Origin: a bacterium
GTDB taxonomy: Bacteria > Patescibacteriota > Minisyncoccia > Phycocordibacterales > CAIZLB01
Assembly (NCBI GenBank): GCA_027490575.1
Contig: JAIXXV010000032.1
Location: forward strand, 13,211 to 77,210
DNA length: 64,000 nucleotides
Direction: 5' to 3'
This document shows, one piece after another, positions 1,665-56,042 of the stretch. Position 1 is the stretch's first letter, and each line of letters starts with the position of its first letter. The position numbers and the translations under genes are program-made. The notes under the pieces are model-generated. The model was given only the letters and a program-made list of their open reading frames with translations. It was not told the DNA's origin and did not search any database.

Positions 1665-1692
1665 TTGACAAGCCATATAGTGCTGGTATAAT
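1665..1692 (+). promoter_or_regulatory. Near-consensus sigma70-type promoter (TTGACA, 16-nt spacer, TGgTATAAT)
   Basis: TTGACA at 1665-1670. TATAAT at 1687-1692 with TG at 1684-1685 (extended -10). Confidence 0.6.
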
Positions 1693-1793
1693 ACTATTCC
1701 AGTACAAGGCGCAAGTTTTGTACAACCTCAACAATTTAGAAGGTGTTCATGTGATCACCTTAGCACCCGAATTGAAAGGCGGGTTTGAACATT

Positions 1794-1991
1794 ATGGCAG
1801 CCATGTTTAACGACGGAAGACCTATTCAAAACGTCTTCCAAGTAAGTCAGAGAGCATTGCTTTCGGAGGAAAGCCTACTTCTTGAAGAAATGAGAGAAGC
1901 ATCACTTGCTGATTTCCATCCAGTTCACGCTGGATTCGCTGGTGCCCTCGCACTAATTCTGGAGGTAGGTGCCGACGACAACGAACTCTGA
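1794..1991 (+). CDS. Small orphan protein (65 aa), islet A
   Basis: ATG at 1794 preceded by GAAAGGCGGG. The ORF lies between the consensus promoter at 1665 and the hairpin terminator at 2011. TGA stop. No recognisable motif. Confidence 0.4.
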   Translation: MAAMFNDGRPIQNVFQVSQRALLSEESLLLEEMREASLADFHPVHAGFAGALALILEVGADDNEL

Positions 1992-2010
1992 GCCTCAAAA
2001 GCTCCCAATA

Positions 2011-2049
2011 GCCGACTCTCACCCTCGTGGTGGCAGTCGGCTTTTTTTA
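2011..2049. terminator. Hairpin terminator between islet A and the convergent pth
   Basis: gccgact (2011-2017) / agtcggc (2035-2041) followed by tttttttt. Confidence 0.7.
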
Positions 2050-2087
2050 TTTCCCAAAGATTGCTACTGGTCAGACTCACACTTAAA

Positions 2088-2699
2088 CTAACCCTGATTA
2101 AACTCACCCATTGCCTTTTCCCTACCTTCACTTATACACATGTAAATTGCTTCTGCGACTTTTTTTGATATTTTCTTTATCTCATCAAACTCAGCTGGCT
2201 TGAACTCACCTACTATAAAATCCATGATTTTATCTGAACCTGGCTTTTTGGGTTTACCAGAAGGAGTTGTTGGACATATGCCGACTTTTATTCTGGCAAA
2301 TGCTTCTGTCTTTATAGCTTTTTTTATTGACTCTATACCCCTGTGCCCACCTGATCCTCGATTGAAAAGTATTTTTATCTTTCCAATGGGCATATCTAGG
2401 TCGTCTTGCACGACTATCAGCTTTTCAGCTTTTTTTGCACTTGTCACCAAGGGTGCGACACTGGCACCAGACTTGTTCATATAGGTCTCAGGTAAAACGA
2501 GAGTGACTTTTTCTACACCTGTTTTTGCGTTTTCTGAATCAATCTCATCTTGAGAAATCATTGCCGAATACTTAGAACTTTTTACAAACTCAGGAAACTT
2601 ATACTTTTTTGCAAATTGTTCAACTCCAATACGACCAGCATTATGTCTGGTATTTTTGTACTCTTCACCTGGGTTTCCTAGTCCAACGACAATATACAT
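2088..2699 (-). CDS. pth: Peptidyl-tRNA hydrolase
   Basis: N-terminus MYIVVGLGNPGEEYKNTRHNAGR is the canonical Pth signature. 203 aa. Confidence 0.9.
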   Translation of the reverse strand: MYIVVGLGNPGEEYKNTRHNAGRIGVEQFAKKYKFPEFVKSSKYSAMISQDEIDSENAKTGVEKVTLVLPETYMNKSGASVAPLVTSAKKAEKLIVVQDDLDMPIGKIKILFNRGSGGHRGIESIKKAIKTEAFARIKVGICPTTPSGKPKKPGSDKIMDFIVGEFKPAEFDEIKKISKKVAEAIYMCISEGREKAMGEFNQG

Positions 2700-2751
2700 A
2701 TTATTTTATTTATATTTTGATTATAACATAAAAGTGTAGTATCATGCTGAT

Positions 2752-3303
2752 ATGAGTTTTTTATCAAGACAATTTAAAGAGTGGCGTTATACGATTTTGC
2801 TTTTCATTGTATTGATATCTATCCGACTATTTGTTGCAGAGCCATTTCTAGTTTATGGAAGTTCTATGGATCCCACGTTTACATCCGGTGATTATCTGGT
2901 GGTTGATGAGATAAGTTACAAGCTAGAAAATCCAAAGAGAGGTGAAGTCATAGTTTTCATACCACCATATGACAACACCAGACATTTTATAAAAAGGATT
3001 ATAGGGCTTCCAGGTGAGACAGTTATAGTTGATGGTTCAGTTATAAAGATTATAAATGACCAGAATCCAAAAGGATTTATCTTGGATGAGCCATATGTAA
3101 AGTTCCAGAGCAATAGAAAATCCACAGTAAAACTCAGCGAAAATGAGTATTATGTGGCTGGTGACAACAGAAATGTCAGCTACGACTCTAGAAGCTGGGG
3201 TGCCTTGCCATCTGAGAATATTACTGGTAGAGCATTATTGAGATTGTATCCTTTCCAAAGTATAGGTATACTCCCTGGAAATGAGCACATTACGGCTGAA
3301 TAA
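2752..3303 (+). CDS. lepB: Signal peptidase I
   Basis: N-terminal TM segment, catalytic-Ser box GSSMDPTF, KRIIGLPGE box and GDNRNVSYDSRSWG box. Confidence 0.9.
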   Translation: MSFLSRQFKEWRYTILLFIVLISIRLFVAEPFLVYGSSMDPTFTSGDYLVVDEISYKLENPKRGEVIVFIPPYDNTRHFIKRIIGLPGETVIVDGSVIKIINDQNPKGFILDEPYVKFQSNRKSTVKLSENEYYVAGDNRNVSYDSRSWGALPSENITGRALLRLYPFQSIGILPGNEHITAE

Positions 3304-3432
3304 GGGCCAAATCCTGCATAATAGCCTTACATAGGCCGCAGACAGCTCAATGCAGGGCCAAGGGTCCAGATTTAGACGCAATATCGGACACAGCATATAG
3401 CTGGATTTAGCATAAATAAATCAAACAAAAAA

Positions 3433-10220: not shown

Positions 10221-10361
10221 CAGAAACGACTGTCGGGTCGCTAGCGATATGGTATAAAAAGTGGTCTGGCTTTCAGTCAGCTCTCTTAGGGTAGCAATTT
10301 CCCTACCTATCAGGATCATTCAAAAACATAGGGGCCGACAACCCTTAGGAGGATAATAATC
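10221..10361 (+). promoter_or_regulatory. Structured 5' leader of 2-TM gene B1 with conserved boxes
   Basis: Boxes: CAGAAACGACTG (10221-10232), TGTCGG (10231-10236), palindrome TCGCTAGCGA (10238-10247), CATTCAAAAACATA (from 10317), GGGGCCGACA (10331-10340), SD AGGAGG (10347-10352). TGTCGG can pair with CCGACA (10335-10340), enclosing 98 nt. Confidence 0.45.
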
Positions 10362-11222
10362 ATGCAAAGCGAATTAGAAAAACAAGTAGAAGGAGCAGAA
10401 GATGGTGCAGAAAAAGACGAAATCGACTCGAGCATCTCGAGTGAGGTAGTTACCACGACAACAACAGCGCAAGGTGTCAAGCTTACCGAGCGAGAGCTCA
10501 GGATGCTGTTTGTCAGGACAAATCTGATTGACGACCTTGTCATGAGTATCGCAGGGAAAGTCCCTAAGAATGAAAAGGATGCCGGCCGGATCAAGAAACT
10601 CATTATTGCGACTCCTGCACAAATCTTGATCTTTGTTATCATTATGATACTGGCAATATTCACAATTTCGTCAGCGAAACATCTTGATCAACTATTCACA
10701 GGGACTGTGTCCAGTGCACTACTCAGTGTATCAGCAATCATGCTAGTTTTTTCCATCATCTTCACGTTGATTTCTGCGATTCGATGGTGGTATGACTACA
10801 AAAAAGAGCAGATTGACGGTTTGAAGAAGGTTGAACTCTTCATCGAGCACTTCCTCGATTCAATCATCCCAATAGAACGAGTCGATCAGGATAAAGTAAT
10901 CCATGAACTAGATGAGTTCGTCTTGGAAAGACTAACAAAAGTCTATCTTCATCTGCAAGCATATGTGGAATATTGCTCTATAAATCACATGATTTCTGTG
11001 TACGGTGTTCCGGAAAATTACGCTGAGTACGAAGAAGAGTGTGAAGTCATGTTTGATATTGCAATTAAAATTGGATGGAGCGTTGGAAATATTAGCCATT
11101 CAAGAGGTCGAATTGCAGGTGCTATCAAACGTCGAATCGATGAACTTGGAGGAGACGGTCTCTGGTCTAATACCTACTACCAGAGATGTGTTCATGGGCA
11201 CACTTGGATATTCCCAACATAA
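10362..11222 (+). CDS. Orphan 2-TM membrane protein B1 (acidic N-terminus, two central TM helices, helical C-domain)
   Basis: 286-aa ORF with a strong SD. TM helices ILIFVIIMILAIFTI and LLSVSAIMLVFSIIFTLI. C-terminal box YEEECEVMFDIAIKIGWSVGNIS is shared with B2. Confidence 0.6.
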   Translation: MQSELEKQVEGAEDGAEKDEIDSSISSEVVTTTTTAQGVKLTERELRMLFVRTNLIDDLVMSIAGKVPKNEKDAGRIKKLIIATPAQILIFVIIMILAIFTISSAKHLDQLFTGTVSSALLSVSAIMLVFSIIFTLISAIRWWYDYKKEQIDGLKKVELFIEHFLDSIIPIERVDQDKVIHELDEFVLERLTKVYLHLQAYVEYCSINHMISVYGVPENYAEYEEECEVMFDIAIKIGWSVGNISHSRGRIAGAIKRRIDELGGDGLWSNTYYQRCVHGHTWIFPT

Positions 11223-11260
11223 GTACATGGTATAACCCGGTTTGTTTGATGATCCAGTAT

Positions 11261-11290
11261 GCGCTCCGCCTGAAAATGGCGGAGCGTTTT
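11261..11290 (+). terminator. Rho-independent terminator of B1
   Basis: gcgctccgcc (11261-11270) / ggcggagcg (11278-11286) followed by tttt. Confidence 0.75.
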
Positions 11291-11347
11291 AATTATTTAC
11301 CTATTTACTTATAGTACAAAAATGCTTTAATCTACCTAGATTTTGGT

Positions 11348-11481
11348 TGTCGGACCATATCTCCAAACACGTAGCATGGAGTAACGGCCGAAAACCGTTG
11401 TTTCCTGGACCCGAAAAGTCCCGTTAATTTGGCACATTCAAAATACAAATGAGGGGCCGACACTTCTCGCACTCAAATACA
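11348..11481 (+). promoter_or_regulatory. Structured 5' leader of 2-TM gene B2, homologous to the B1 leader
   Basis: TGTCGG (11348-11353), two hairpins with identical CCGAAAA loops (11383-11399 and 11407-11421), CATTCAAAATACAAA (from 11435), GGGGCCGACA (11453-11462). The spacing from TGTCGG to CATTCA is 82 nt, against 81 nt in B1. Confidence 0.45.
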
Positions 11482-12249
11482 ATGAAACTCAGTGAAATCA
11501 ACTACCGCTTTACAGTCGAACCTGTATTGAGACTAATCCAATCCATGATGAAAAATGGCAATTACATCACTCCACAGAGCTCAAGCAGAACTCTGTCGAT
11601 GATGTTTTGGCTAAATTCGTCCATACGAAACGAGCTGATGCAATGGACTTTCAAAATTGGTCCATCGTGGCCAGAAGATCCAAATCCTCTAAAATCAATT
11701 ACAGGCGCAATGATTGCATTCATCATTGCATTAGCAGCAGGAGTGGCGCAGTACTTATTTCCAAATTTAGTACCATTTTTGATCATTTTCTTGCCCTCAG
11801 CAGTACTGTGTATTTACTGGACCACACTGTCTTTAGCCGCTGTGGTAGTCAGAATCAAAAAAGCATGCTTTCTTACTGACTTTATCAACATAGTTGGTAC
11901 AATACCGCTAATAAGGAGGCAGCATCTCATAAACCCTGGACATCGTGAAAGTAGCTATGATTACCTTGTCGTGGTGATGCTTTTGCAACAACTCATGAGT
12001 GTTTCCAAAAAGGTCAAAGGTAATACTGAAGACCCGAAGCTAAAAGATGAAGAGAAAAGGCTATATGACTCAGCCTTCAAACTTGGTGTACTAGGAGATG
12101 ACATCTCGGCCGTATACACGTTGGTATATCGGTTGATTGAGGAAAAGGAGCAAGGTAAACCTATAGGATCGGGTCAAAATAGCGGCGGAGATGGAGACGG
12201 CTTTCCAGAACCTGACCCAGACGCACTCCCGACAAGCGTCCTTGGTTAA
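11482..12249 (+). CDS. Orphan 2-TM membrane protein B2, tandem paralogue of B1
   Basis: The track ORF starts at 11449. ATG 11482 is preferred because it lies 29 nt after the GGGGCCGACA box (31 nt in B1). It has two TM helices, and its box DEEKRLYDSAFKLGVLGDDIS aligns with the B1 box. Confidence 0.55.
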   Translation: MKLSEINYRFTVEPVLRLIQSMMKNGNYITPQSSSRTLSMMFWLNSSIRNELMQWTFKIGPSWPEDPNPLKSITGAMIAFIIALAAGVAQYLFPNLVPFLIIFLPSAVLCIYWTTLSLAAVVVRIKKACFLTDFINIVGTIPLIRRQHLINPGHRESSYDYLVVVMLLQQLMSVSKKVKGNTEDPKLKDEEKRLYDSAFKLGVLGDDISAVYTLVYRLIEEKEQGKPIGSGQNSGGDGDGFPEPDPDALPTSVLG

Positions 12250-12307
12250 AGAGACAACGGAAGAGCGCCTGAGAAATCTGAGTAATAGAACGAGATTCTA
12301 GGACTGT

Positions 12308-12346
12308 GACCACTGTACCTGATAGCAAAGGTATGGTGGTTTTTTA
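12308..12346 (+). terminator. Rho-independent terminator of B2
   Basis: gaccactgtacct / aggtatggtggt (2 mismatches) followed by tttttatttg. Confidence 0.65.
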
Positions 12347-16128: not shown

Positions 16129-16218
16129 TGTTGACTACATCTTTTTATAATTGTAACATCTTCGGCAGAACCCAGAGTTCCAAATACAAACCTCAAAACA
16201 TGAAAGGAAACGACATAG

Positions 16219-16860
16219 ATGAACATTTCAGAAGAGATTTCAATTAGGGTCAACAGAAACTTGACAGATCGCCTTGGCGGCCTGGAAAGCCAACTGGTTG
16301 AAACAATGAGTAAGGAGAGGGTAAAAATGGCCAAAAGGCAAATGCTTTCAAAGTACACAGCTGCCATTGCAGTCAATTTCACCGATTGGATAGGAAAAAC
16401 CTACCCGTGGACAAGAAGCCTTGAAGCTCAGTTGGCGCTCATGGATCTTCTTAACCAAGAGCAGACTAATGATCGAATCGGGGCGCTGCACAGGCTTGCT
16501 AAACAATGCCAAGCAATGCCACAGGAAGAGCATTTTGCCGTCGTTGAAGAAAAAGTTTCTGCTGTTCGCCACCTACTCACGAACATCAAGACAGTAGGTA
16601 TTAGTGGTTTAGCCGTAATAGCAATACTTGAAAATGCATCTGAGGTTTTTATGCCCACACTTGAAAGTTGGGCTATATCACTTGGTTGCATCGACTTTGA
16701 GTATTTTGAAGTGAAGGAAAAGCCAAACGGCAAACATGCTAGTTCCCTGCTAAATGGTCTAGAAATCGAATTGTCTCGGAATTATCGCAACTTGGACCAA
16801 CTTCTCAGTACTGCAGAAGCTCACAGTCTCAAGCTATTATCCAGCATCTTCAGTATCTAG
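16219..16860 (+). CDS. Orphan helical protein (213 aa), islet C
   Basis: The ORF has AAAGGAA 9 nt before the ATG and its own terminator. The sequence is helix-rich. A heme-oxygenase-like helical fold is only a weak guess. Confidence 0.45.
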   Translation: MNISEEISIRVNRNLTDRLGGLESQLVETMSKERVKMAKRQMLSKYTAAIAVNFTDWIGKTYPWTRSLEAQLALMDLLNQEQTNDRIGALHRLAKQCQAMPQEEHFAVVEEKVSAVRHLLTNIKTVGISGLAVIAILENASEVFMPTLESWAISLGCIDFEYFEVKEKPNGKHASSLLNGLEIELSRNYRNLDQLLSTAEAHSLKLLSSIFSI

Positions 16861-23038: not shown

Positions 23039-23069
23039 CAATCTCACTGACATAAGTCAGTCGAGGTCG

Positions 23070-36678: not shown

Positions 36679-36784
36679 AGATGACTATTATACTGATTTT
36701 AAGAAGGTTTGCAACAGGGCCAATGCGCTTGGTATTACGCGCGCATTTCCACGAGTTTTTCAGCGTACTTAGGAGTATTTGCAT

Positions 36785-36817
36785 AAAAAAAGGCTCTCCG
36801 GTACTGGACCGGGAGCC
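36785..36817 (-). terminator. Terminator of the small basic-protein gene
   Basis: Minus strand: ggctcccgg tccagta ccggagagcc followed by ttttttt. Confidence 0.7.
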
Positions 36818-36898
36818 TAGGGGTTGATTAGGGCGAAATTCAATCATTATTTGTGAGACTTGGCTCAATGATTGGTTTCTATGTTCTTAGAAAAACTA

Positions 36899-37051
36899 TC
36901 AGCTTGCTCGGCCAGGCCTGCGACGAATGTGCCCGCCTGGGTTATCACGTTCGTCCAGGTAGTGAACCACCCTGTCGTGCTCGTTTCTTGGTGTACGCGG
37001 CCGCTTGTGGCCGTTTCTTGGATTCCGCTTTAACTGACGTCCTTGTGCCAT
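36899..37051 (-). CDS. Very basic 50-aa orphan protein (MAQGRQLKRNPRNGHKRPRTPRNEHDR...)
   Basis: ATG 37051 is preceded by AAGGAA at 5-6 nt. Visibly G+C-rich, TGA stop, own terminator. Rich in Arg/Pro/His/Asn. An RNA-gene alternative cannot be excluded. Confidence 0.4.
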   Translation of the reverse strand: MAQGRQLKRNPRNGHKRPRTPRNEHDRVVHYLDERDNPGGHIRRRPGRAS

Positions 37052-37114
37052 ACGATTTCCTTTTTTTTCGATTTTATGTGTGACCATTGTCGACTCCTGC
37101 TACCAAGCAGAAAT

Positions 37115-37888: not shown

Positions 37889-37962
37889 TATTTACCCATT
37901 ATACAACACACAAACCTTATCCACTTCTTTATGTTTCTTAATAAAAATTTTATAATAGCTTC

Positions 37963-40900
37963 ATGACTTCTAAGGACCCTATCGTTCCCGACAATGAAAC
38001 AGCAAAAAAGAGATTTGTGCACTTGCACACTCACACTCACTATAGTCTACTCCAAGCACTACCAAAGATCCCGGATTTGATAAAAAAAGCAAAAGAGTCA
38101 GGTATGGACGCATTGGCAATCACTGACAATGGAAACATGTATGCAACTATCGAGTTCGTAAAAGAAGTTGATGGGAAAGATATCAAACCAATCATCGGTG
38201 TAGACTTTTTCGTGGCAGTCAGAACAAGACATGACAAAGAGCCTCGCATAGACAATCGTAGTAAAAAACTTTTATTGTTGGCAAAAGATTCTGTTGGTTA
38301 TCAAAGTCTAAAGATGCTTGTGACTCGTTCAAACTTTGAAGGTTTCTATTATCGTCCACGTATTGATAAGGAACTTATAGAAGAGTACAAAGATGGTGTG
38401 ATTGCTATCATGCCGTCTTTCGGTGGTGAAGTCGCGTCTTTAGCTAGCACAGGTAACATAGATGAAGCCAAGAAAGTATTAGAATATTATAAAGAAGTAT
38501 ATGGTTCATCAAAAGACCCTAAAGAGAGTAACCTATTCATAGAAATCACAAAACATGATGATGTGGAAGATCATAAAGTGACTATGGAACGCATGATAGA
38601 GATTGCGAGAGACTGTGATGTACCTATAGTTGCTGCTCATAACATTTTCTATACAAATCCTGACGATAAAAAAGCACGTACGACCCTACTCTCAGTTCAG
38701 AAAAGCTTTTCAAGTGGCCCGGTTGAAGATGCTGAGGGAGATTTTTCATTTCAAAGTACAGATCAAATGCTTGAGCATTTCAAAGACTTACCTGAAGCTA
38801 TAGAAAACACTGGTATCATAGCTGACAGATGCAACCTTGAGATACCACTTGGAAACTGGGTTTTTCCAAAACTAGAAGTAAGTGATCATCATAAAAATTC
38901 TGAAAAACCATATGATGAGGAGTTGCGCGAAGTTGTATATAAAGGATTCGCCAGAAGAAAAGTAGAAAAAACTGAAGAAGTTATAAAGAGAGTTGAATAC
39001 GAATTGGAAGTTATACGAAATAAAGGTTATGCACCTTACTTCTTGGTGGTAGCCGACCTTCTAAGGTATGCAAAAGAAAATGGCATACTCTCAAATATTA
39101 GAGGATCTGTATCTGGTTCGATGGTGACTTACCTTTCTGGTATTACAAATATTGACCCTATTGAGTACGAAATACCATTTGAAAGATTCCTAAACCCCGA
39201 TCGTCCATCAGCTCCCGATATCGATATGGACTATGCCGATAACCGTAGAGATGAGATGGTGGAATACACAAGACAAAAATACGGTAGAGACAAAGTGGCA
39301 CAGATTGGAACTTTCGGTACGATGGCAGCCCGCGGATCAGTTAGAGATGTGACACGTGCACTTGGCTTTCCTATCTCACTTGGAGATCAAGTCGCCAAAC
39401 TTATACCTATGGGTAAGCAAGGTTTTCCTATGACTATAGAGTTAGCGCTTGCGACAGTTCCAGAGCTAGCTGACTTGTACAAAGAAAATGCTGATGTAAA
39501 GCAAGTGATAGACATGGCAAAAAAGATTGAAGGTTGTGCAAGACATATCTCTATCCACGCAGCAGGTGTAGTTATTTCCCCAACTGATATCACTGACTAT
39601 ACACCTTTGCAATACGACCCTAAAGGTGAGATGAAAATCATTACTCAATACGATATGTACTCTATCGAGGATGCAGGTCTTTTGAAGTTTGACTTCCTCG
39701 GCTTGAAAAACCTCTCTATCATCGCCGATGCCATAGAGATTGCCGAGGCTCGTAACAAAGATAAAAACTTGCACATTGATATAGACACGATACCTCTCGA
39801 TGATGTTAAGACTTTTGAAATGCTTCAGCGTGGTGAGACGGAAGACTTGTTCCAATTAAACGGCGATGGTATGACACGTTTCCTAAAAGAGCTAAAACCC
39901 AACTCTATCCACGACATCAATGCGATGGTGGCACTATATCGTCCCGGACCACTTCAGTTCATCCCAGACTATATCGAGAGAAAGCATGATCCGAAAAAGA
40001 TTCCTGACATGGACCCTGATGTTTATGAAATCTTGAAGAAAACTTTTGGTGTACTAGTGTATCAAGATGACCTTTTGATGATGGCGCACAAGCTAGCTGG
40101 ATATAGTTGGGGCGAAGTAGATAAGTTCCGTAAAGCTGTAGGAAAGAAGATTCCAGAGGAAATGGCAAAGCAGAGAGAGAAGTTTATCCAGGGCTGTATA
40201 GAACACAGTGGTTGGGACAAAAAGCGTGCAGAGGAAGTGTGGGTAAAGATAGAACCATTTGCATCATACGGTTTCAACAAAGCTCACTCTGTATCATACG
40301 GACGAGTTGCGTATATCACGGCATATCTAAAAGCCAACTATCCCGCTGAGTATATGAGTGCTGTACTTACTCATGAATCAGGTGACGTTGAAAAGATTGC
40401 AGTATCTGTACAGGATTGTAAAAGAATGAAGATAGAGGTATTGCCTCCAAATGTAAATGAGAGTTATGGAAACTTTGGTGTGGTCGAAGATAAGATAATA
40501 CGTTTTGGACTATACAGTGTGAAAAACTCTGGTGAAGGCATAGCGGATGCGATTATCGCTGAGCGTAAGAAAAATGGAAAATATAAAACTCTTGAAGATT
40601 TTCTAAAGAGAGTTAAGGACCGAAACCTCAACAAGAAGTCTATGGAATCTTTGATCAAGGCTGGTGCTTTTGATGAGTTTGGAGACAGAGGAATCCTACT
40701 TGCCAACCTCCCTGACCTTCTCGAATACAACAAGGAACTTGCAAAGATGCCAGAAAACCAAGATTCACTCTTTGGCGCATTTGGCATGGATGACTCCGAC
40801 GGCTTGAGTACAGATGCAAATCATCTAAAACTTCAAGATGCACAGCCCGCCGATCCTACAGAAAAACTTCTTTGGGAAAAAGAGCTTCTCGGTTTGTACA

Positions 40901-41517
40901 TCTCAGGTCACCCTCTCGACAAACATCGCGCAACTTTGGACCAGCGTGAGCACAACATCGCTCGAGTAAAGCGAATGATTATGGAAGACGCTGAAGCCTT
41001 TGAGGCAAAGCAACAACGCGATGCTGAAAAAGCAGCTTTCCGACTGGCTCAAATGATACAGTATCGAAAAGAGCGAGGTCTACCTATAGAAGACATGGAC
41101 ATTGATGCAAGTGATGATGGAAAGTTGGCAGCGAGCGCTGGTAACAACGGTGTTGCGGAGGCAAACGGATCGGCGGAAAAAGGTAATGAACCAAAACCAA
41201 CAAAACCTGCTAAAAAAATGACACGTGAAGAAATACGAAAACAACAAGAAGCATCTCGTCCGAAAGAAAGAGTCTTGGTTATTGCAGGTATCATTGAATC
41301 AGTAAAAGAAATCCCTACCAAAAAAGATCCTACTCAAAAAATGATGTTCCTAAACGTCGCCGACTTCACTGGTTCTATAGAAGTAGTGGTCTTTCCAAAA
41401 TCATATGAACTCCATAAAGCCATGTTAAAACCTGATGCATGTGTAGCCATAAAAGGCAGGACTTCTAGTAGAAATGGTACACCGAGTTTGATGTTGGAGA
41501 ATATTAAGGTTTTGTAA
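37963..41517 (+). CDS. dnaE: DNA polymerase III alpha subunit
   Basis: PHP domain FVHLHTHTHYSLL, followed by polymerase core and OB-fold regions. 1184 aa, unbroken. Confidence 0.95.
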   Translation: MTSKDPIVPDNETAKKRFVHLHTHTHYSLLQALPKIPDLIKKAKESGMDALAITDNGNMYATIEFVKEVDGKDIKPIIGVDFFVAVRTRHDKEPRIDNRSKKLLLLAKDSVGYQSLKMLVTRSNFEGFYYRPRIDKELIEEYKDGVIAIMPSFGGEVASLASTGNIDEAKKVLEYYKEVYGSSKDPKESNLFIEITKHDDVEDHKVTMERMIEIARDCDVPIVAAHNIFYTNPDDKKARTTLLSVQKSFSSGPVEDAEGDFSFQSTDQMLEHFKDLPEAIENTGIIADRCNLEIPLGNWVFPKLEVSDHHKNSEKPYDEELREVVYKGFARRKVEKTEEVIKRVEYELEVIRNKGYAPYFLVVADLLRYAKENGILSNIRGSVSGSMVTYLSGITNIDPIEYEIPFERFLNPDRPSAPDIDMDYADNRRDEMVEYTRQKYGRDKVAQIGTFGTMAARGSVRDVTRALGFPISLGDQVAKLIPMGKQGFPMTIELALATVPELADLYKENADVKQVIDMAKKIEGCARHISIHAAGVVISPTDITDYTPLQYDPKGEMKIITQYDMYSIEDAGLLKFDFLGLKNLSIIADAIEIAEARNKDKNLHIDIDTIPLDDVKTFEMLQRGETEDLFQLNGDGMTRFLKELKPNSIHDINAMVALYRPGPLQFIPDYIERKHDPKKIPDMDPDVYEILKKTFGVLVYQDDLLMMAHKLAGYSWGEVDKFRKAVGKKIPEEMAKQREKFIQGCIEHSGWDKKRAEEVWVKIEPFASYGFNKAHSVSYGRVAYITAYLKANYPAEYMSAVLTHESGDVEKIAVSVQDCKRMKIEVLPPNVNESYGNFGVVEDKIIRFGLYSVKNSGEGIADAIIAERKKNGKYKTLEDFLKRVKDRNLNKKSMESLIKAGAFDEFGDRGILLANLPDLLEYNKELAKMPENQDSLFGAFGMDDSDGLSTDANHLKLQDAQPADPTEKLLWEKELLGLYISGHPLDKHRATLDQREHNIARVKRMIMEDAEAFEAKQQRDAEKAAFRLAQMIQYRKERGLPIEDMDIDASDDGKLAASAGNNGVAEANGSAEKGNEPKPTKPAKKMTREEIRKQQEASRPKERVLVIAGIIESVKEIPTKKDPTQKMMFLNVADFTGSIEVVVFPKSYELHKAMLKPDACVAIKGRTSSRNGTPSLMLENIKVL

Positions 41518-46200: not shown

Positions 46201-46229
46201 AAAAAGGCCGACGTCCTGGGACGCCGACC
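46201..46229 (-). terminator. Terminator of lipoprotein gene 46251-46781
   Basis: Minus strand: ggtcggcgtcc cagg acgtcggcc (with G-U pairs) followed by ttttt. Confidence 0.65.
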
Positions 46230-46250
46230 TTGTTGCTCTTTTTGTTTTTT

Positions 46251-46781
46251 TCACCTTCGTGCATCGGGAGGTGGTTGGTAGAGCGAACCAACCGTCCTGC
46301 CTGCCTGTGGAATCATCTGCGGAGGTCCATTTTGACCCTGAAGGTCACCGGGTGCGTAGATCATGCCAGTGGCATGATCCATGAACCATGGTTTGGAATC
46401 GTCCAGTGTCACCTTACTTTCGCGAGGAGCTCCGTGGGTCCTTTGGAACTCACGGAGTTGCTCGTCGTTGAAGTGATGGACGGTGCCGTCGTCCATAGTG
46501 ACGGTGTGTGTACGCGTAGCATAGCCGAGCAGACGTCTACCGTCTGGCATAGCCTGGCCGACATGATTGTCGGCTGAGCCTTGGACCACTTGTCCATGGC
46601 CCCACTGGTGATTTGGAGGTTGACCTCCGTTTTCTACAGTTTGACCATTGAATGCCATGGGCGCTTGACCCATAACCACCCCAGGTTGTTGGACAACTTG
46701 GCGCCGCTGTGGAACAGCAATGCAAGAGACGAAGCTGATCATGGTGACCAGTGCCAATACTAACAATTTCACTTTTTTCAT
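46251..46781 (-). CDS. G+C-rich secreted/lipoprotein-like orphan (Gln/Gly/Pro/His-rich)
   Basis: MKKVKLLVLALVTMISFVSC signal with a Cys at the end of the h-region. ATG 46781 is preferred. TGA stop. Confidence 0.5.
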   Translation of the reverse strand: MKKVKLLVLALVTMISFVSCIAVPQRRQVVQQPGVVMGQAPMAFNGQTVENGGQPPNHQWGHGQVVQGSADNHVGQAMPDGRRLLGYATRTHTVTMDDGTVHHFNDEQLREFQRTHGAPRESKVTLDDSKPWFMDHATGMIYAPGDLQGQNGPPQMIPQAGRTVGSLYQPPPDARR

Positions 46782-46975
46782 GATAATGAACGATTTTAGG
46801 GTTTGCTGAATGTACACTTTCGGTGCTTTACCGTGTGTAGTTGACTAGTATAATAGTATATTATGTCATATTTGTCAATAGTAATAATTGACTTTTATTA
46901 AAAATAGTGATATTAATATAAGCAGACAGATTCATTCTGAAATACCCTCAACCCAAAAATCCAAGACAAAACGAG

Positions 46976-47728
46976 ATGTCAGAAAACATGAAAAGCGCGT
47001 TCCTTACATACATCATGCTAGGTTTTACCAGCTTGATGGCCCAATACAACATCATAGTAGACGCAAGTCTGCAGATGGCCACCCTCTTCCAGGATGGCAA
47101 AATAGTTCAAGGTTTTGCCGAAATACCCATTGCCACCGGCATGCTAGGGCACGAGACCCCGGAGGGTACATGGAGTGTGCTGTCAGCTAAAGCCAGCGAC
47201 CGATCCAACAAATTTGGAGTGAATATGCCTTACTGCTTCAGAACCAACGCGATTGGTGGTGGTATCTGCATGCATGAAGGGCCGGTTTATCCAGGAGCAG
47301 CATCACACGGGTGCATTCGTATTCGTCACGACTTCGCCAAAAATCTTTTTGATAAAGTTGGCGATAACTGGAAATCTATGAAGATTGTAGTGGTTGGGTC
47401 AATTAAGGATTACATCAAGACAAGACTTGGTGGACTGGTGAGCTTTGACAAAGACGGTAGACCTGTAAAGTTTATCAGGGATTCGTCAGGTAGGCTTCCA
47501 GATGAGTTCCTAAAAGCTCTACATGACGGAAGAGTTACGCTCTTCTGCGAGAATAAAAGTGGTACGATTTCATTTGACCAAAATCAATGGTTCATATCGC
47601 TTGAATTTTGGCAAGACAAGAGGTTAAAAGGAGTGACTCTATCAGAGCTACAATCAAGATTTGGCCAAAGGGTTAACCTCACTGAGAACCAAATCAAAGA
47701 ACTTCACAGGAGAGTTGAAAGGTATTAG
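46976..47728 (+). CDS. L,D-transpeptidase (YkuD domain) protein
   Basis: Catalytic motif GICMHEGPVYPGAASHGCIRIRHDF (SHGCIR). N-terminal hydrophobic segment. Confidence 0.75.
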   Translation: MSENMKSAFLTYIMLGFTSLMAQYNIIVDASLQMATLFQDGKIVQGFAEIPIATGMLGHETPEGTWSVLSAKASDRSNKFGVNMPYCFRTNAIGGGICMHEGPVYPGAASHGCIRIRHDFAKNLFDKVGDNWKSMKIVVVGSIKDYIKTRLGGLVSFDKDGRPVKFIRDSSGRLPDEFLKALHDGRVTLFCENKSGTISFDQNQWFISLEFWQDKRLKGVTLSELQSRFGQRVNLTENQIKELHRRVERY

Positions 47729-47778: not shown

Positions 47779-47903
47779 ATGCACTGATTTTTATCTCGTA
47801 CGATTTATATAAAAAACCTATTGATAAATATAAAAAACCGCCCACTCCACGAATGGAGCAGACGGGCTTTGAGGGTATCTAAAGTCCTCACACCTAGAGA
47901 CAA

Positions 47904-48356
47904 CTACCAGAACCCTGGCTGGCACCCGCCACCAATACCACTACGGTCTGGATTCTGGTTGTAGATGTACTGCAGCTGGCCATAAGGATTCTGTGACCCG
48001 ATATGCGGTATAGGTCCACCACCGTGTAGATAGATAGGGTGACCAGATCTGGAGAATCCTCCGAATACCTGACCGCCTCCCCATCCACCAAAGCCTTGGT
48101 TGAAACCTTGGTTGATCCAAGGGTCAGCACAAGCACCGACAGGTGCAAGGCCTACACCGTCAAAGACAGGAAACCCGTCATCACAGATGACTGCACCTCC
48201 TCCGAAGCCATCGTCTAGAACGAGACAACTCGGCAAAGCCAAGCTACACACCAAAGCCATCAAGACAAGCTTGATTGCCTTTAGGAAGCGCACTGACCGC
48301 GAGACCAAGGGTAGCCGAGCTCCAGTGACAACACAACTGACTGATTTGTTTTTCAT
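47904..48356 (-). CDS. Gly-rich secreted/lipoprotein-like orphan (150 aa)
   Basis: ATG 48356 is preceded by GAAAGGCGGG. The signal segment ends LALPSC. Gly/Phe/Asn/Gln-rich mature part. Confidence 0.5.
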   Translation of the reverse strand: MKNKSVSCVVTGARLPLVSRSVRFLKAIKLVLMALVCSLALPSCLVLDDGFGGGAVICDDGFPVFDGVGLAPVGACADPWINQGFNQGFGGWGGGQVFGGFSRSGHPIYLHGGGPIPHIGSQNPYGQLQYIYNQNPDRSGIGGGCQPGFW

Positions 48357-48581
48357 ACTGACAACCCGCCTTTCAACCGGGTTCGAGCAAGGTTTTTTAG
48401 ACCCACTCTTTTGGTTTGGTTTTTGATTTCGATTTGATACCAATGTCTGACATTTTCACGCCAAATAAAGTTGGTATATTTCAAGCGAACACTGCCCCTA
48501 AAGAAGAATGCTCGTAACTAACCTGTAAAAATATTGCATTAGTTGAGACTAACTGTCAACCCCAACTTAGCCTGACACCGA

Positions 48582-49726: not shown

Positions 49727-49873
49727 ATTATTTATATGTATTTTATATGAGCTATGTTTATACAAGTATTTTAAACAAGCGTTTATAAGAGTATTATAGC
49801 CCAACCTTTACCTGTATTATAGCCCGAATCCCAAAGATTGACAATATATCTATATATGATATAATTTATTTAT

Positions 49874-51127
49874 ATGAAAAACTTTATTAAAATCATTATC
49901 ATAGTAGCAATACTGGTTATACTGGTATTTCTAAGTGTTGGTATAGTGCGTATTGTACCTAGAGTAGTGTCTTCCCTAGCCTCAGCTACGGTGTCACTTG
50001 GCTCATTTTTTACTGGTGGTTCAGACAGCAATGCCACTTCAACTTCAAGTAGTGGTAACAGTACTAACAATAATGGTACTCAAACATCTACATCTACAAG
50101 TGGAAATGGTTTTGTAGTGATTAATGGAACATCAACAAATTCTAGCAATGAAGATGATAGATCATTGGTCAATATACTTAGACCAAACAATACTTCAGGG
50201 CAACCTACTCAAGGTTCAAACAATTCAAACACTTCGAATGTAAAGAACTCTGTAAACAATTCTGCAAACGCAGGTACAGGCAACGTCTCTTATGTTGCAA
50301 ATACATGTACTAACGGTCGTGTATCTGATCTTGCCGTGAGAGTGCTTTCTCGTGGTGTTATGAACAAGGCTACAGGTCAATACATAGAGACCAACTCATT
50401 TACATCAGCTGACACTGTCATCGTAAAGTTTATAGCTGAAAACAGAGGAAGCTGTCCTACGGGCACATGGAGTCTAAGAGTAGACATGCCATCACAAAAC
50501 ACAGCTGATAGAGTTAGAAATATAGTAAACGTAGCTAGTCTTCCTGCTGGTTCTACAGTAACAGGTGAAGTTAACTTCACTACACCTGTAGTTGGAAATT
50601 CAAATGTAACTCTAACAGTAACTGATAACTCAGGTAGAGATTCAAATCTTTCAAACAATACAGTACCGACTTCGATTACGACTATTGCTACTAACACAGG
50701 TACAAATCCTGGAACACCTATCACAGGTGATGGAAGACCTGACCTGGCAGTGCGAATACTTAGAATGGGTACACTTGGATTCAATAACCAATTCGTCCCT
50801 ATCGCAAATACTTCATCTAACTTCGGCGGTAACTTCAGAGTTGGTGAAAGAGTTGCAGTACAATTTGAAGTCATTAACCAAGGACAAACACCTACTGGTG
50901 CATGGACATGGAGAGCTGACTCTGTAGCATTTCAAAATGGAAGCTATACAAACAATCAGTATGAAAATTCAATCCCTGCAGGAGGCAGACTTGTATACAC
51001 TATTGGATTTGATAGTCAGACTATAGGTACAAACAATATCTCTGTCACAGCAGATCATTTGAACCAAGTAAATGAGTTCAATGAATCAAACAATATCGCT
51101 GGTGTTAGTTTCAATGTTGGATACTAA
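49874..51127 (+). CDS. Secreted protein with two CARDB-like domains
   Basis: N-terminal TM/signal and an S/T/N-rich linker. Two units begin with DLAVRxL and the second ends with NEFNESNN (CARDB-type). Confidence 0.6.
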   Translation: MKNFIKIIIIVAILVILVFLSVGIVRIVPRVVSSLASATVSLGSFFTGGSDSNATSTSSSGNSTNNNGTQTSTSTSGNGFVVINGTSTNSSNEDDRSLVNILRPNNTSGQPTQGSNNSNTSNVKNSVNNSANAGTGNVSYVANTCTNGRVSDLAVRVLSRGVMNKATGQYIETNSFTSADTVIVKFIAENRGSCPTGTWSLRVDMPSQNTADRVRNIVNVASLPAGSTVTGEVNFTTPVVGNSNVTLTVTDNSGRDSNLSNNTVPTSITTIATNTGTNPGTPITGDGRPDLAVRILRMGTLGFNNQFVPIANTSSNFGGNFRVGERVAVQFEVINQGQTPTGAWTWRADSVAFQNGSYTNNQYENSIPAGGRLVYTIGFDSQTIGTNNISVTADHLNQVNEFNESNNIAGVSFNVGY

Positions 51128-51232: not shown

Positions 51233-51255
51233 TATCTGTATGACAACATTATGTT

Positions 51256-51416
51256 CAGAAAGCGACTGAAAAGTTGCAATCTCTGAGCATAGCCTTATGG
51301 GCCGTATCCTCAGGGGTATAGCTTAAATGGTCAAATGTTCTGTTAAAAGTTCAACAAATTCAACAAAAATCAAACCGAGCGAAAGCTCACGGCCTTTAGA
51401 AAGGGGCCTTTAGTAT
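51256..51416 (+). promoter_or_regulatory. 5' leader of 2-TM gene H sharing boxes with the B1/B2 leaders
   Basis: CAGAAAGCGACTG (51256-51268; compare B1 CAGAAACGACTG), ATTCAACAAAAATC (from 51358), hairpin ggccttt aga aaggggcc, GGGGCC at 51403-51408. Confidence 0.4.
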
Positions 51417-52052
51417 ATGAGCAATGACAATGTTACTGGTATTGATTGTACAAATTGTGCTAAGGCCAAGCTAGCCGCTTGGTTTATGCAACAGTGGATA
51501 AACGAACATGTAGGTCACTACATCTCGTGTGATCCAATGCAACTTGAAGGCAGGGTTTGGTGGCAACAACTGTCATCGAAGACAGCAATCATTTCGTTTA
51601 TAATTCTTGTGGCATTTTGTTTAGTGACCGCATTTATTGGACCCGAGGAGACTGAAAAGCTGCGCTTTTTGGTAACTTACGGATTGTTCGTATTGTGCTT
51701 GCTAGCAGTGTCATTCATCGGCAACCTTGCCTTCATGACCTCTCAAGAACACATTGCAATGACATTGGCTTGGATGAAACACTTCAAGCACCTGTCTAAG
51801 ACCAGGGCATACTTGTTCTTGGTCCAACAAATGAAAGTACCGAAAGCGAATAGGCAACCGGGTTTCTGCAGGGAAACTCAGAACAAGTTCGAAGAACGGT
51901 TGCGTGCTGAGTTAGCCGATCTTGCAGGCAGATCCAGAAAAGGTAAACCAGGTTCAGCTGGACCATGCCACAAAACAAGCAAAGAGTTCAGGCACAAGCG
52001 AGAGGCCGCTGAAGCATTCGGTATTGTGGCGCGCTCTACTGGTACACCCTGA
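51417..52052 (+). CDS. Orphan 2-TM membrane protein H (third member of the B1/B2 architecture)
   Basis: 211 aa. A Cys-containing N-domain, two central TM helices (IISFIILVAFCLVTAFI, LFVLCLLAVSFIGNLAF) and a basic helical C-domain. TGA stop. Confidence 0.5.
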   Translation: MSNDNVTGIDCTNCAKAKLAAWFMQQWINEHVGHYISCDPMQLEGRVWWQQLSSKTAIISFIILVAFCLVTAFIGPEETEKLRFLVTYGLFVLCLLAVSFIGNLAFMTSQEHIAMTLAWMKHFKHLSKTRAYLFLVQQMKVPKANRQPGFCRETQNKFEERLRAELADLAGRSRKGKPGSAGPCHKTSKEFRHKREAAEAFGIVARSTGTP

Positions 52053-52069
52053 GTAAGTAATGGTACGAC

Positions 52070-52101
52070 ATGCCGTGTGGAAAACCCACACGGCATTTTT
52101 A
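52070..52101 (+). terminator. Terminator of gene H
   Basis: atgccgtgtgg aaaa cccacacggcat followed by ttttt. Confidence 0.75.
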
Positions 52102-54363: not shown

Positions 54364-54439
54364 TGATTTGAAAGTTTTCTTGAAAGTGTTGATAATTTAT
54401 ACCGTTATATTATAACAGATTGCGGACATTTGGTGGTTA

Positions 54440-54467
54440 TTGACATGATGGTGGTTTGTTGTACTAT
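54440..54467 (+). promoter_or_regulatory. Sigma70-type promoter of islet gene 54517
   Basis: TTGACA (54440-54445), 16-nt spacer, TACTAT (54462-54467). Confidence 0.5.
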
Positions 54468-54516
54468 GTCGTAGGTTCTCAATAATGTTCCTAAAAATCT
54501 AACCCGGGAGGTATTT

Positions 54517-55074
54517 ATGCCGATTAATACGAATTATAGAGTTTATGACAGTTTTTCTCAAGGTGACAGGAGGTTGTTCTCAATGATATTAAGGTTTTGT
54601 CTGGAAATACAAAACAATCTGATTGAAAAGTCTAAGTCTGGTAAGGAAATTCCTAGCTGGGAGTGTCACACAATGGCAAGATTGGTCCACCTAGCCTATC
54701 CTTCTACAATTGTTACCGATGGAAGAATGGTCGGCTTCAAAAGGATTGAAATGTTTTCAAAGCCTGGCGAACCTGAGGGTGAACTTGTACCGAGTATGTC
54801 AGCTGAATTCTCTGTACCAAGAACGACATTGAGAATGTTTACATGTGCTCACTCTTGGTTAAAAACACCGGATGGGAACATTATTGATGTCTATCCATGC
54901 GGTATCTATGCAATAGGACCTATAATGGTTACCGCCGACGATACTTACGGACATTTTGGTGCAAACCAGTACCAAGAGCTTGCTGAAGCAAAAGGCCAGT
55001 TCGATGAAGAGGGATCCCTTAGCACAGCAAAGAAATTGCTAGAAATTGCAGGGATTACTTATCCAGTCGTCTGA
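54517..55074 (+). CDS. Orphan protein with a possible transglutaminase/papain-like Cys-His-Asp arrangement
   Basis: GGGAGG lies 5 nt before the ATG. SWECHTMARLV (Cys), then CAHSWLKTPDGNIIDVYP (His, Asp) in the order and spacing of transglutaminase-like cysteine peptidases. TGA stop. Confidence 0.45.
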   Translation: MPINTNYRVYDSFSQGDRRLFSMILRFCLEIQNNLIEKSKSGKEIPSWECHTMARLVHLAYPSTIVTDGRMVGFKRIEMFSKPGEPEGELVPSMSAEFSVPRTTLRMFTCAHSWLKTPDGNIIDVYPCGIYAIGPIMVTADDTYGHFGANQYQELAEAKGQFDEEGSLSTAKKLLEIAGITYPVV

Positions 55075-55112
55075 TAGCATTCCTAAGTATACAGCCCCGA
55101 TGAGCAAATCGG

Positions 55113-55141
55113 CCGCACTCCACCCGGAGTGCGGTTTTTTA
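55113..55141 (+). terminator. Terminator of gene 54517-55074
   Basis: ccgcactcc accc ggagtgcgg followed by tttttt. Confidence 0.8.
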
Positions 55142-55329
55142 ATTCAGTATTTTTAAAATTGTTACTGGTATCGGGACTCAAGATGATGCAAAAGACCTTT
55201 GGTTCACAGGTCAATACAAAACATACCTCTTTTAGAAAATCATGCTAAAATAACAATTGCTAGATCTTTTCACTAAAACATTCTCAGTAGAATACAAAAT
55301 AAACATCGAAACAAAAGGAGGACTAAATA

Positions 55330-55992
55330 ATGAAATCAAAAAAGTACCCTTATTTGATCACACAGGCACAACAATGCATTGTATTCATGGCAATCCCGAA
55401 AAGCCGTGAAGGTGGCAGTCTAACTGAAATCGATCAAAATAGATTGCAGGCTGTTACCAGAAGGGTTGTTGCAGACATCCTAATTCGGACAGTTTTAGGG
55501 ACTGACAGCTACGCATTGCGCAAAAATCTGCTCATGAGGCAATCACGGATAGTCGATACCTGCGGCGGACCGGATATCAGCACCACCTGCGGCATCGTTT
55601 GCATGGAGGTTGCAAAATCAGAATCCCAAATATTTCAATTTGAACCTTGCGGTGAAGGTCTGAGTGATAACCCTGAACATTTTGCTGCACTTGAAGAGTT
55701 TATCAAAGGCTGCTTTTCAACCGGGTCGATTGCTGAAGGGTCACTAGCTATGTTTACATGGATCCCCGTCAAAATGCGAACAGAAGAGCGAGGTACACTG
55801 ACAGATGGTATCTACAGCTATCCAGTACACAGCTTTCTCAAGGAAGTCTTCCCTGACGCAAGCAAAGGCATGGATTTCATTAAGCTGATGAGGCTCTGTT
55901 ACGCTGATGACCCGCATGCGATAGTCGTCTACCCAGACACAGAGCGAGTAGCATTGATGACAGAGTTTACCACCGAAAGGCTTTCATACTGA
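55330..55992 (+). CDS. Orphan protein (220 aa), no recognisable motif
   Basis: AAGGAGG lies 8 nt before the ATG. Own terminator. TGA stop. Confidence 0.5.
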   Translation: MKSKKYPYLITQAQQCIVFMAIPKSREGGSLTEIDQNRLQAVTRRVVADILIRTVLGTDSYALRKNLLMRQSRIVDTCGGPDISTTCGIVCMEVAKSESQIFQFEPCGEGLSDNPEHFAALEEFIKGCFSTGSIAEGSLAMFTWIPVKMRTEERGTLTDGIYSYPVHSFLKEVFPDASKGMDFIKLMRLCYADDPHAIVVYPDTERVALMTEFTTERLSY

Positions 55993-56008
55993 TTTCAATC
56001 TACCCCTT

Positions 56009-56042
56009 GCCGGTCACCAATCACACGGTGACCGGCTTTTTA
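56009..56042 (+). terminator. Terminator of gene 55330-55992
   Basis: gccggtcacc aatcacac ggtgaccggc followed by ttttt. Confidence 0.8.

Follow-up and report, generated by a model that had tools for sequence, protein, structure and literature searches.

Can a single bacterial chromosome keep two ways of starting translation apart, each for its own set of genes? This question is raised by a 64-kb stretch of contig JAIXXV010000032.1 (the window; 40% G+C (GC), densely coding), in which a first-pass annotation had separated a backbone of genes without Shine-Dalgarno (SD) sequences from scattered orphan genes, the islets, described as SD-led, GC-richer and individually terminated. The islets were attributed there to horizontal acquisition from SD-using, higher-GC donors or, alternatively, to a distinct regulatory class. 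Our analysis of thirteen islet units (Table 1) favours, with some reserve, the view that this chromosome carries two expression architectures, and that the islets are cassettes of a recombining accessory pool held within the clade.

The window and its source organism

By Pfam, the backbone is made of housekeeping genes (rpsA, pth, lepB, ybeY, ftsA, ftsZ, trxB, msrA, msrB, tsaD, valS, rpsP, RNase R, smc, rnc, nusB, rnhB, dnaE, thrS, ung and gyrB), and a sortase and a Pif1 helicase are also named among its genes. All relatives of its GyrB found in species-representative genomes come from metagenome-assembled genomes (MAGs) of Patescibacteria/Paceibacteria, and the source organism is a member of the Paceibacteria (Patescibacteria, or candidate phyla radiation, CPR) with an ultra-small genome. 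The closest species representatives are the loci L010 and L011, at 88% GyrB identity, followed by L012 and L013 at 83% identity and 40% GC. L010 and L011 have 52% GC, 12 points away from the window despite this identity, and base composition has therefore shifted fast within the lineage. Assembly chimeras, against which the first-pass annotation had cautioned, are excluded as the origin of the islets, because independent assemblies (the NCBI MAG GCA_027484805.1 and four Logan assemblies) carry DNA 100% identical to positions 45330-63944.

Two gene populations in the window

SD strength was scored as the duplex energy between the 16S tail ACCUCCUUU and the 22 nucleotides (nt) before each start, for 13 islet and 47 backbone genes. 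Islet genes are named here by their start positions. Four of them, 10362, 23878(-), 54517 and 55330, reach SD energies of -10 kcal/mol or lower at the canonical spacing of 3-8 nt. Moderate motifs precede 1794 and 48356(-), both with GAAAGGCGGG (-7.5 each), 51417 (-7.3), 22010 (-6.9), 16219 (-5.9) and 37051(-). The description of the orphans as SD-led was thus right for ten of the thirteen, four of them very strong cases; the other three are taken up below. Backbone energies lie nearly all between 0 and -4.8, weaker than in the internal-ATG control (mean -3.0, with 3.3% at or below -8), because the regions 5' of backbone starts are A-rich and nearly free of G. Only two exceptions were found, msrB (19543-19947(-)), where AGGAG overlaps a -10 box, and rpsP, the start of which is not certain, so that the lack of SDs noticed by eye in the backbone is borne out by the energies.

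The two sets also differ in composition. GC is 0.466 in islets and 0.393 in the backbone (p=7e-7), GC at third codon positions (GC3) is 0.456 and 0.329 (p=2.6e-7), and the fit to backbone codon usage is lower in islets (p=6e-6); as had been proposed from hand counts, the islets are richer in GC with distributions that overlap. TGA ends seven of the 13 islet genes and one of the 47 backbone genes; the Fisher p=2e-4 was computed on six of 13 against one of 47, before the stop of 36899-37051(-) was corrected to TGA. The sole backbone case is a NUDIX gene (31663-32151) with an ATGA overlap. The TGA pattern is therefore one of enrichment in islets, TGA being rare in the backbone and not absent from it.

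Across the clade, TGA ends 8.8% of conserved genes, and gyrB of L013 as well. No in-frame TGA occurs in conserved open reading frames (ORFs), which are intact under the standard code; an alternative code with TGA reassigned (codes 4 or 25) and a loss of release factor 2 were rejected on these grounds. The TAG stop is unusually common, at 22 of 47 backbone genes in the window and 26% across the clade (loci L010-L124).

Anatomy of the islet cassettes

The eight best matches to terminators with GC-rich stems (11261, 12308, 23069, 46231(-), 47865(-), 52070, 55111 and 56009) all lie directly 3' of islet ORFs, and seven of them have at least seven G-C pairs; that at 12308 has 13 pairs, five of them G-C. 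Two more hairpins, 3' of 1794-1991 and of 37051(-), were read by eye. Consensus -35/-10 promoters lie 30-165 nt upstream of six islet genes (1794, 16219, 21971, 46781(-), 48356(-) and 54517). The earlier statement that most islets have their own terminator, and often a promoter, agrees with these counts.

Unrelated islet genes 46 kb apart have in common an element of about 30 nt within their 5' untranslated regions (UTRs), ACCCG-N2-3-TTGAAAGGCGGGTT, at 1764-1790(+) and 48382-48358(-). Immediately ahead of the ATG, it can fold into a hairpin of 5-6 bp whose loop holds GAAAGG, and cassette 10 carries the GAAAGGCGGG hairpin motif (48376-48363) as cassette 1 does. An exact 14-mer of the element is present in two copies; at most two mismatches being allowed, the chance expectation is 0.37 matches, and among 1.55 Mb of relatives this 14-nt motif occurs in this genome only. 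For cassettes 1 and 10, hairpin stability does not exceed that of shuffled sequence (z -0.05 and -1.0). At 51417, the SD-like AAAGGGG is paired within a stable hairpin (GGCCUUUAGAAAGGGGCC, z = -2.2), and translation could be controlled there through sequestration of the SD.

All-vs-all BLASTP gave no paralogous families among the islets, and a repeat search gave no flanking repeats, the 14-nt motif being their sole common element; paralogs and mobile-element repeats are thereby ruled out. Structured RNA genes as the source of GC-rich islets are ruled out as well, by an Rfam scan of the window that gave two tRNAs and nothing else.

Table 1. Islet units, selected backbone genes and intergenic repeats of the window
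Unit	Extent	Strand	ORF and product	Start signals	Stop and terminator
Islet cassette 1	1665..2048	+	1794-1991, 65 aa	perfect TTGACA-16-TATAAT 1665-1692; leader ~100 nt; GAAAGG in hairpin loop 1772-1785	TGA; terminator 2010-2042 + T-run
Islet cassette 2 ('B1' of the first-pass annotation)	10332..11297	+	10362-11222, 286 aa, two transmembrane helices (by eye)	AGGAGG 9 nt before ATG 10362	TAA; terminator 11261-11287, 8 G-C pairs
Islet gene 3	11449..12341	+	266-aa membrane ORFan (orphan ORF); GC3 0.43	no SD	TAA; terminator 12308-12341
Islet gene 4	16131..16860	+	16219-16860, 213 aa; GC3 0.44	promoter-like 16131-16159; weak SD AAAGGAA	TAG
Islet cassette 5	21804..23095	+	start 21971 or 22010, end 23038; MYG1/UPF0160 hydrolase	promoter 21804-21832 (11/12); leader ~135 nt; SD GAAAGG or GAGGTG	TAA; terminator 23069-23095
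Islet gene 6	23252..23900	-	208-aa ORFan, C-terminal membrane anchor	AAGGAGG 6 nt before ATG 23878	TGA
Islet gene 7	36792..37070	-	36899-37051, 50-aa basic ORF	SD AAGGAA	TGA; terminator 36817-36792
Islet cassette 8	46204..46878	-	46251-46781, 176-aa lipoprotein-like, Gly/Pro/Gln-rich; GC 0.54	promoter 46878-46850 (11/12); no SD	TGA; terminator 46231-46204
Islet gene 9	46976..47728	+	YkuD L,D-transpeptidase; GC3 0.47	no SD	TAG
Islet cassette 10	47838..48559	-	47904-48356, 150-aa Gly-rich lipoprotein-like protein	promoter 48559-48530; leader ~165 nt	TAG; terminator 47865-47838
Islet cassette 11	51391..52096	+	51417-52052, 211 aa, two transmembrane helices (by eye)	SD AAAGGGG within hairpin 51391-51408	TGA; terminator 52070-52096
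Islet cassette 12	54440..55136	+	54517-55074, 185-aa ORFan	promoter 54440-54467; GGGAGG 5 nt before ATG 54517	TGA; terminator 55111-55136
Islet cassette 13	55300..56036	+	220-aa ORFan	AAGGAGG 8 nt before ATG 55330	TGA; terminator 56009-56036
rpmF	36448..36700	-	36448-36678, ribosomal protein L32, backbone style	TATAAT ends 8 nt before ATG 36678	TAA
dnaE	37945..41517	+		TATAAT ends 6 nt before ATG 37963; no SD	TAA
Gene 49874	49838..51127	+		TTGACA-16-TATAAT ends 8 nt before ATG 49874; no SD	TAA
Heptamer repeats	27321-27400, 35399-35442, 56920-56976, 60656-60770, 61096-61147; also 17256-17292, 34522-34550		intergenic		

How backbone genes start, in the window and across the clade

About 16 genes of the window (16 of 63 tallied), such as dnaE, thrS, rnhB, rpmF and 49874, have a -10-like hexamer ending 6-11 nt before the ATG, an arrangement that indicates putative leaderless mRNAs. 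The layout of the start of 49874 is the same in the siblings L010-L013. Window genes without an SD have 0-17% G and 29-62% A at positions -13 to -1.

The same arrangement was found in 642 conserved genes of 108 Paceibacteria loci. There, the frequency of -10-like hexamers rises to a sharp maximum at 6-11 nt from the ATG, in 25% of genes as compared with 5-9% in control bins (40, 20, 22, 35, 18 and 16 cases at 6, 7, 8, 9, 10 and 11 nt, over a background of about 5). The region from -13 to -1 is depleted in G (9-18%) and enriched in A, and the other conserved genes, including those internal to operons, have A-rich, G-depleted upstream regions without an SD. The base at -1 is T in 50% of these genes. 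A strong SD (at or below -8.5 kcal/mol) precedes 0.8% of the conserved genes, 1.8% of the internal-ATG control and 6.9% of orphans. Because strong SDs stay at 0.8% and TGA stops at 8.8% in conserved genes, even near 50% GC, the SD-less backbone with TAA or TAG stops is a trait of the clade and not of one genome.

Recurrence of the second gene population

Replication was sought in 108 independent Paceibacteria loci outside the window, with 1,199 ORFs. A scan of Joint Genome Institute (JGI) metagenomes with TsaD gave a best identity of 60% and no close sibling, and served for clade statistics only. The 36 genes with a strong SD in these loci are orphans in 69% of cases, as against 29% of the others (p=1e-6); they more often end in TGA (31% against 15%, p=0.017) and are more often followed by a strong terminator (42% against 14%, p=7e-5). 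Their GC exceeds the locus mean by 3.2 points (p=3e-5), and their -10 boxes lie 27-69 nt upstream and do not adjoin the ATG. Only five come from genomes with at least 50% GC. Given this association of SD, orphan status, TGA, terminator and GC, the second gene population is a recurring feature of the class. The coherent population that had been proposed for the window, SD-led, richer in GC3, enriched in TGA and with its own promoters and terminators, is thus replicated outside it.

Relatives of the islets and their turnover among siblings

Database relatives were sought for three islet genes. Two relatives of 55330 (69% and 43% identity) came out of an exhaustive HMMER search through 1.84 billion representatives, and word-indexed searches of 5.8 billion clusters gave three of 54517 and, besides itself, one of islet gene 6, hereafter 23252(-). 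Every relative with a readable context sits at the syntenic position of a close sibling. The close siblings are L041 and L042 (GyrB 99% and 98% identical) and L125 (backbone proteins 90-97% identical), and L044 is an 825-nt contig only, with flanks that match the window.

The syntenic orthologs of 55330 in L041 and L042 are 69% and 65% identical and keep the SD and the terminator hairpin. Between the window and L041, synonymous divergence (dS) of this gene is 0.71, with 0.5-2.0 in backbone neighbours, and the ratio of nonsynonymous to synonymous divergence (dN/dS) is 0.26, with 0.01-0.18 in neighbours. Its GC3 is 0.46 and 0.47 in the two lineages, where that of neighbours is about 0.3. Since dS is like that of the neighbours and both GC3 and SD are kept, 55330 is resident and co-diverging, and not recently imported. 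It is a real gene under selection that has co-diverged with the chromosome and kept its odd composition.

A different history is seen at 54517. The whole cassette (54474-55222) is missing in L041, which has 75 nt in its place. L044 departs from the window at one base in the 150 nt upstream (98-100% identity), and the last 60 nt of the coding sequence (CDS) are about 94% identical, whereas the interior of the CDS has 46-74% nucleotide identity and the allele is 61% identical in amino acids (aa). Third codon positions hold 100 of the 188 differences, which are spread over about 480 nt and include all 12 substitution types. Hypermutation by a diversity-generating retroelement was ruled out by this spectrum and spread, and the window holds no reverse transcriptase. 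The L044 gene is best read as an old, functional allele recombined into near-identical flanks. The MYG1 gene of L125 is comparable, with about 45% nucleotide and 38% aa identity in the CDS, 90-92% in the 5' region and 75-80% in the terminator region, and the L125 ortholog of 23252(-) is 58% identical and keeps SD and TGA.

L125 also has extra SD-led orphans that are not in the window, one of them inserted at window position ~21759. Siblings with a GyrB identity of 83-88% keep the backbone synteny and lack the islets around gyrB, these gaps being occupied by other genes; an SD-led, GC-richer orphan is again among them, at 9305-9772 of L012. Even among siblings with 98-99% GyrB identity, cassettes differ in presence and absence. 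Comparison with siblings, as suggested by the first-pass annotation, thus marks the islets as accessory. Conserved synteny with the same SD was found in close siblings only, and backbone genes elsewhere do not share the SD pattern (0.8%). The islet proteins are real and selected, and they evolve several-fold faster than their neighbours. The swapping of alleles or cassettes inside conserved flanks evidently occurs among related Paceibacteria.

Predicted islet proteins

Pfam and PHROGs searches with ten islet proteins gave no significant match except MYG1 (21971-23038). The YkuD protein was recognised in a separate Pfam scan and has homologs in L011 (52%) and L012 (30%). In the 54517 protein, the motifs WECH (Cys50), AHSW (His112) and IIDxYP (Asp124) are invariant, and a low-confidence model places them on the N-terminus of a helix and on two adjacent strands. 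A resemblance to a Cys-His-Asp triad of papain or transglutaminase-like type is a guess made by eye, which no profile search supports. Neither 54517 nor MYG1 has a signal peptide, judged by eye.

Possible origin and maintenance of two proposed architectures

The evidence leads us to regard as probable a chromosome with two expression architectures. In core genes, which lack an SD and end in TAA or TAG, a -10 box located 6-11 nt ahead of the ATG would give rise to leaderless mRNAs, or short leaders rich in A and poor in G would be present. Between them would stand thirteen monocistronic accessory cassettes, each with its own -35/-10 promoter, a 5' UTR of 30-165 nt, usually an SD 5-9 nt before the start, a lineage-restricted ORFan, often a TGA stop, and a GC-rich intrinsic terminator, with a GC3 about 13 points over that of the core. 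The cassettes would form a flexible pool, exchanged by homologous recombination among related Paceibacteria. They may carry a leader and an SD because each would need autonomous expression at whatever site it is located, the SD serving to recruit the 30S subunit; this step assumes that the 16S rRNA keeps its anti-SD. Raised GC3 and TGA stops would reflect the history of the pool, by exchange with sibling lineages whose GC reaches 52%, by recombination-associated GC bias or by both, and not a recent import from an unrelated donor. Alleles with 38-61% aa identity between flanks 75-100% identical would point to balancing or frequency-dependent selection, which suggests a likeness to interaction or defence genes; that the islet proteins have such a role is speculation.

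If the acquisition proposed in the first-pass annotation were recent, its donors would be unrelated bacteria, such as the host or co-resident species, and the SD, the TGA stops, the GC excess and the terminators would be donor signals not yet ameliorated. The islets are accessory and atypical in composition and codon usage, their signals are those of classical SD-using bacteria, and they are absent from siblings at 83-88% GyrB identity. Horizontal gene transfer is also reported to be frequent in Patescibacteria, with up to 13% of genome length attributed to it; most individual transfers, however, reportedly were between Patescibacteria (PMC12455944), which agrees with a pool internal to the clade. 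For the three genes searched, no homolog was found beyond the immediate lineage in the 1.84 billion representatives and 5.8 billion clusters, and the relatives seen are syntenic; 55330 in particular is a resident by its synteny, dS and equal GC3 in both lineages. A phage origin was rejected, as no significant PHROGs matches were obtained and scans of viral contigs in IMG/VR were negative, and there are neither flanking repeats nor mobility genes in Pfam and PHROGs searches. Recent foreign import is thus unlikely and not supported as stated; foreign donors as the ultimate origin of the islets are conceivable but have no positive support.

The other proposal, that of a distinct regulatory class, fits in so far as the islets are leadered with an SD, while the leaders of conserved genes are either absent or A-rich and G-poor, and it overlaps with the clade-internal pool. 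In its full form, SD-led mRNAs would be translated only by a certain ribosome state or under a certain growth condition, regulation and not mobility being the reason for the SD, and GC and TGA would be side effects of recombination. In Flavobacteriia, bS21/bS18/bS6 occlude the anti-SD, and special regulation applies to those few genes that have a strong SD. SD-led genes are here a small minority too, and differ from either style of the core. In three cassettes the SD is located in or beside a hairpin; it is kept in all orthologs seen, and a weak rpsU (bS21) match occurs at 4834-5076 (23 bits, under the Pfam cut-off of 27). The unremarkable stability of the hairpins of cassettes 1 and 10 speaks against it, and regulation alone leaves the orphan status, the turnover and the shift in codon usage unaccounted for, which makes it quite improbable as the whole explanation. 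Least credible by far is an artefact of spurious ORFs, chimeric assembly or a code that does not read TGA as a stop. Spurious ORFs ending in TGA do exist, such as 36590-36868(-) and 36853-37083(+), which had been taken for genes where the true ones are rpmF and the SD-led 50-aa ORF 36899-37051(-), and probably 30648-30947; the backbone, moreover, almost never ends in TGA. However, the islet ORFs are 150-342 codons long (the 50- and 65-aa ORFs aside), the divergence of the two genes compared across siblings, 55330 and 54517, is shaped by purifying selection, independent assemblies are identical, and conserved genes have no in-frame TGA and can end in TGA, as do the NUDIX gene, gyrB of L013 and 8.8% of those in the clade.

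A bolder version of the two-architecture model deserves mention, although we hold it to be doubtful. In it, two translation regimes would be kept apart, with the core leaderless or SD-independent and hypervariable, recombining ORFan cassettes translated via the SD. The SD would then be a channel, or a switch, devoted to strain-specific genes for interaction or defence, whose old and divergent alleles would be maintained through frequency-dependent selection. Such a split may exist in Paceibacteria and perhaps in CPR lineages more widely.

Several points weigh against the two architectures and the clade-internal pool, as well as against this extension. Three of the thirteen islets (11449, 46781(-) and the YkuD gene 46976) have no SD, and where an SD is present its conservation between siblings is no higher than that of the surrounding non-coding DNA, which gives no sign of selection on the SD itself. 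We infer SD function, because no 3' end of a 16S rRNA occurs in the window or in the 1.55 Mb of related loci; most bacteria retain the anti-SD (PMC6107228). Sibling comparisons cover four islet genes at two loci, of thirteen, and the ORF calls behind the clade statistics were simple (first ATG, at least 80 aa), so that the orphan class includes some spurious ORFs. As regards function, 54517 and 55330 gave nothing in profile searches against PDB or with relaxed Pfam thresholds, and their AlphaFold models, from alignments of three sequences, have confidence scores (predicted local distance difference test, pLDDT) of 35 and 40, too low for fold searches.

Comparison with known systems

The components of this system are already known singly, as leaderless genomes, SD-poor lineages, atypical gene classes and islands in CPR genomes. 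In 'group C' of GeneMarkS-2 (Actinobacteria, Deinococcus), a Pribnow box lies about 10 nt upstream of many first-in-operon starts, and a second, leadered class of genes has an SD (PMC6028130), both of which resemble the present case. The operon-internal and leadered genes of that group, however, generally use an SD, whereas the conserved ones here do not (0.8%), and the SD is confined here to lineage-specific accessory genes. Bacteroidota (GeneMarkS-2 'group B') initiate independently of the SD, with A-rich, Kozak-like leaders and an occluded anti-SD. Starts in the window and clade are similarly A-rich and G-poor, with SD motifs rarer than chance, but they belong to another phylum and have a strong leaderless component. 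In Bacteroidota, the small number of SD-led genes described belong to the core, rpsU for example; here it is ORFans that are SD-led, and no SD precedes the weak rpsU-like ORF.

Genomic islands reported in Patescibacteria (PMC12455944) share with the islets a deviant composition and codon usage, a patchy distribution and a position between conserved genes. The islets differ in being units of one gene each (0.4-1.3 kb) that lack integrases, tRNA anchors and repeats, in being richer in GC and not in AT, and in being marked by a different initiation signal and a different stop codon; for the three genes searched, no homolog was found outside siblings. Phage morons are autonomous units of promoter, gene and terminator inserted between genes. 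The islets are like them in having their own promoter and terminator and a differing composition, between unrelated genes, but they have housekeeping neighbours, do not lie in a prophage and match neither PHROGs nor viral contigs. In replacement-type flexible islands and balanced polymorphisms, divergent alleles of, for example, surface or specificity genes occupy one locus between conserved flanks. Alleles with 38-61% aa identity in the same slot (54517 in L044, MYG1 and 23252(-) in L125) are of this kind; here, however, the unit is a single small gene, and the products of at least 54517 and MYG1 lack signal peptides, judged by eye.

Our literature search brought up no paper that connects SD usage or leaderless initiation with Patescibacteria, and no report that initiation style, stop codon and terminator type split along the core/accessory divide in this group. 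If the two regimes exist, initiation style would be a label, readable from the genome, of the symbiosis and defence gene pool in uncultured episymbionts. SD, TGA, GC3 and terminator together would be a cheap marker, from sequence only, for fast-turnover accessory genes of uncultured Paceibacteria, which have no homologs for annotation and would be the most likely mediators of interactions with hosts, phages and competitors. Gene finders and start callers trained on one initiation model will probably mishandle one of the two CPR gene populations. The system would also be a natural experiment, with SD-dependent and SD-independent initiation on one ribosome, and the divergence of its alleles, set in nearly identical flanks, is an unexpected pointer to strong diversifying selection in genomes of very small size.

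Other features of the window

The rpmF gene is overlooked when only the longest ORFs are listed. The NUDIX gene overlaps, by ATGA, a gene for a DnaG-type CHC2 zinc ribbon (31253-32151(-) for the pair), and the two have the least backbone-like codon usage in the backbone set; the zinc-ribbon gene has a GC3 of 0.47. In L125 the pair is missing at this place, where only a few bases separate the end of smc from the RNase R gene. The pair may represent an additional accessory unit, without an SD. The ORF 8574-8954(-), a 126-aa membrane ORF without homologs, has a GC3 of 0.45, a TGA stop and a TATAAT abutting the ATG, and may be another islet gene or no gene at all.

A PemK/MazF-like toxin ORF (43489-43926(-), Pfam E=8e-6) ends in TGA and has a GC of 0.34 and no SD; no antitoxin is obvious beside it, and at its 3' end it overlaps the terminator hairpin of thrS (43497-43529). 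Two large Thr/Asn/Ser-rich proteins, 44818-46161(-) and 62616-63764(-), are probably surface proteins; neither has a Pfam domain. They have in common a C-terminal segment (50% identity over 46 aa, 80% of DNA over 54 nt) that ends in a membrane anchor. Tandem repeats of heptamers (CAGATAT, CAGGTAT, CAGTTAG and CAGATGA, with a period of 7 or 14) lie between backbone genes, often just 5' of starts, and similar repeats are found in L041 upstream of a LexA-like gene.

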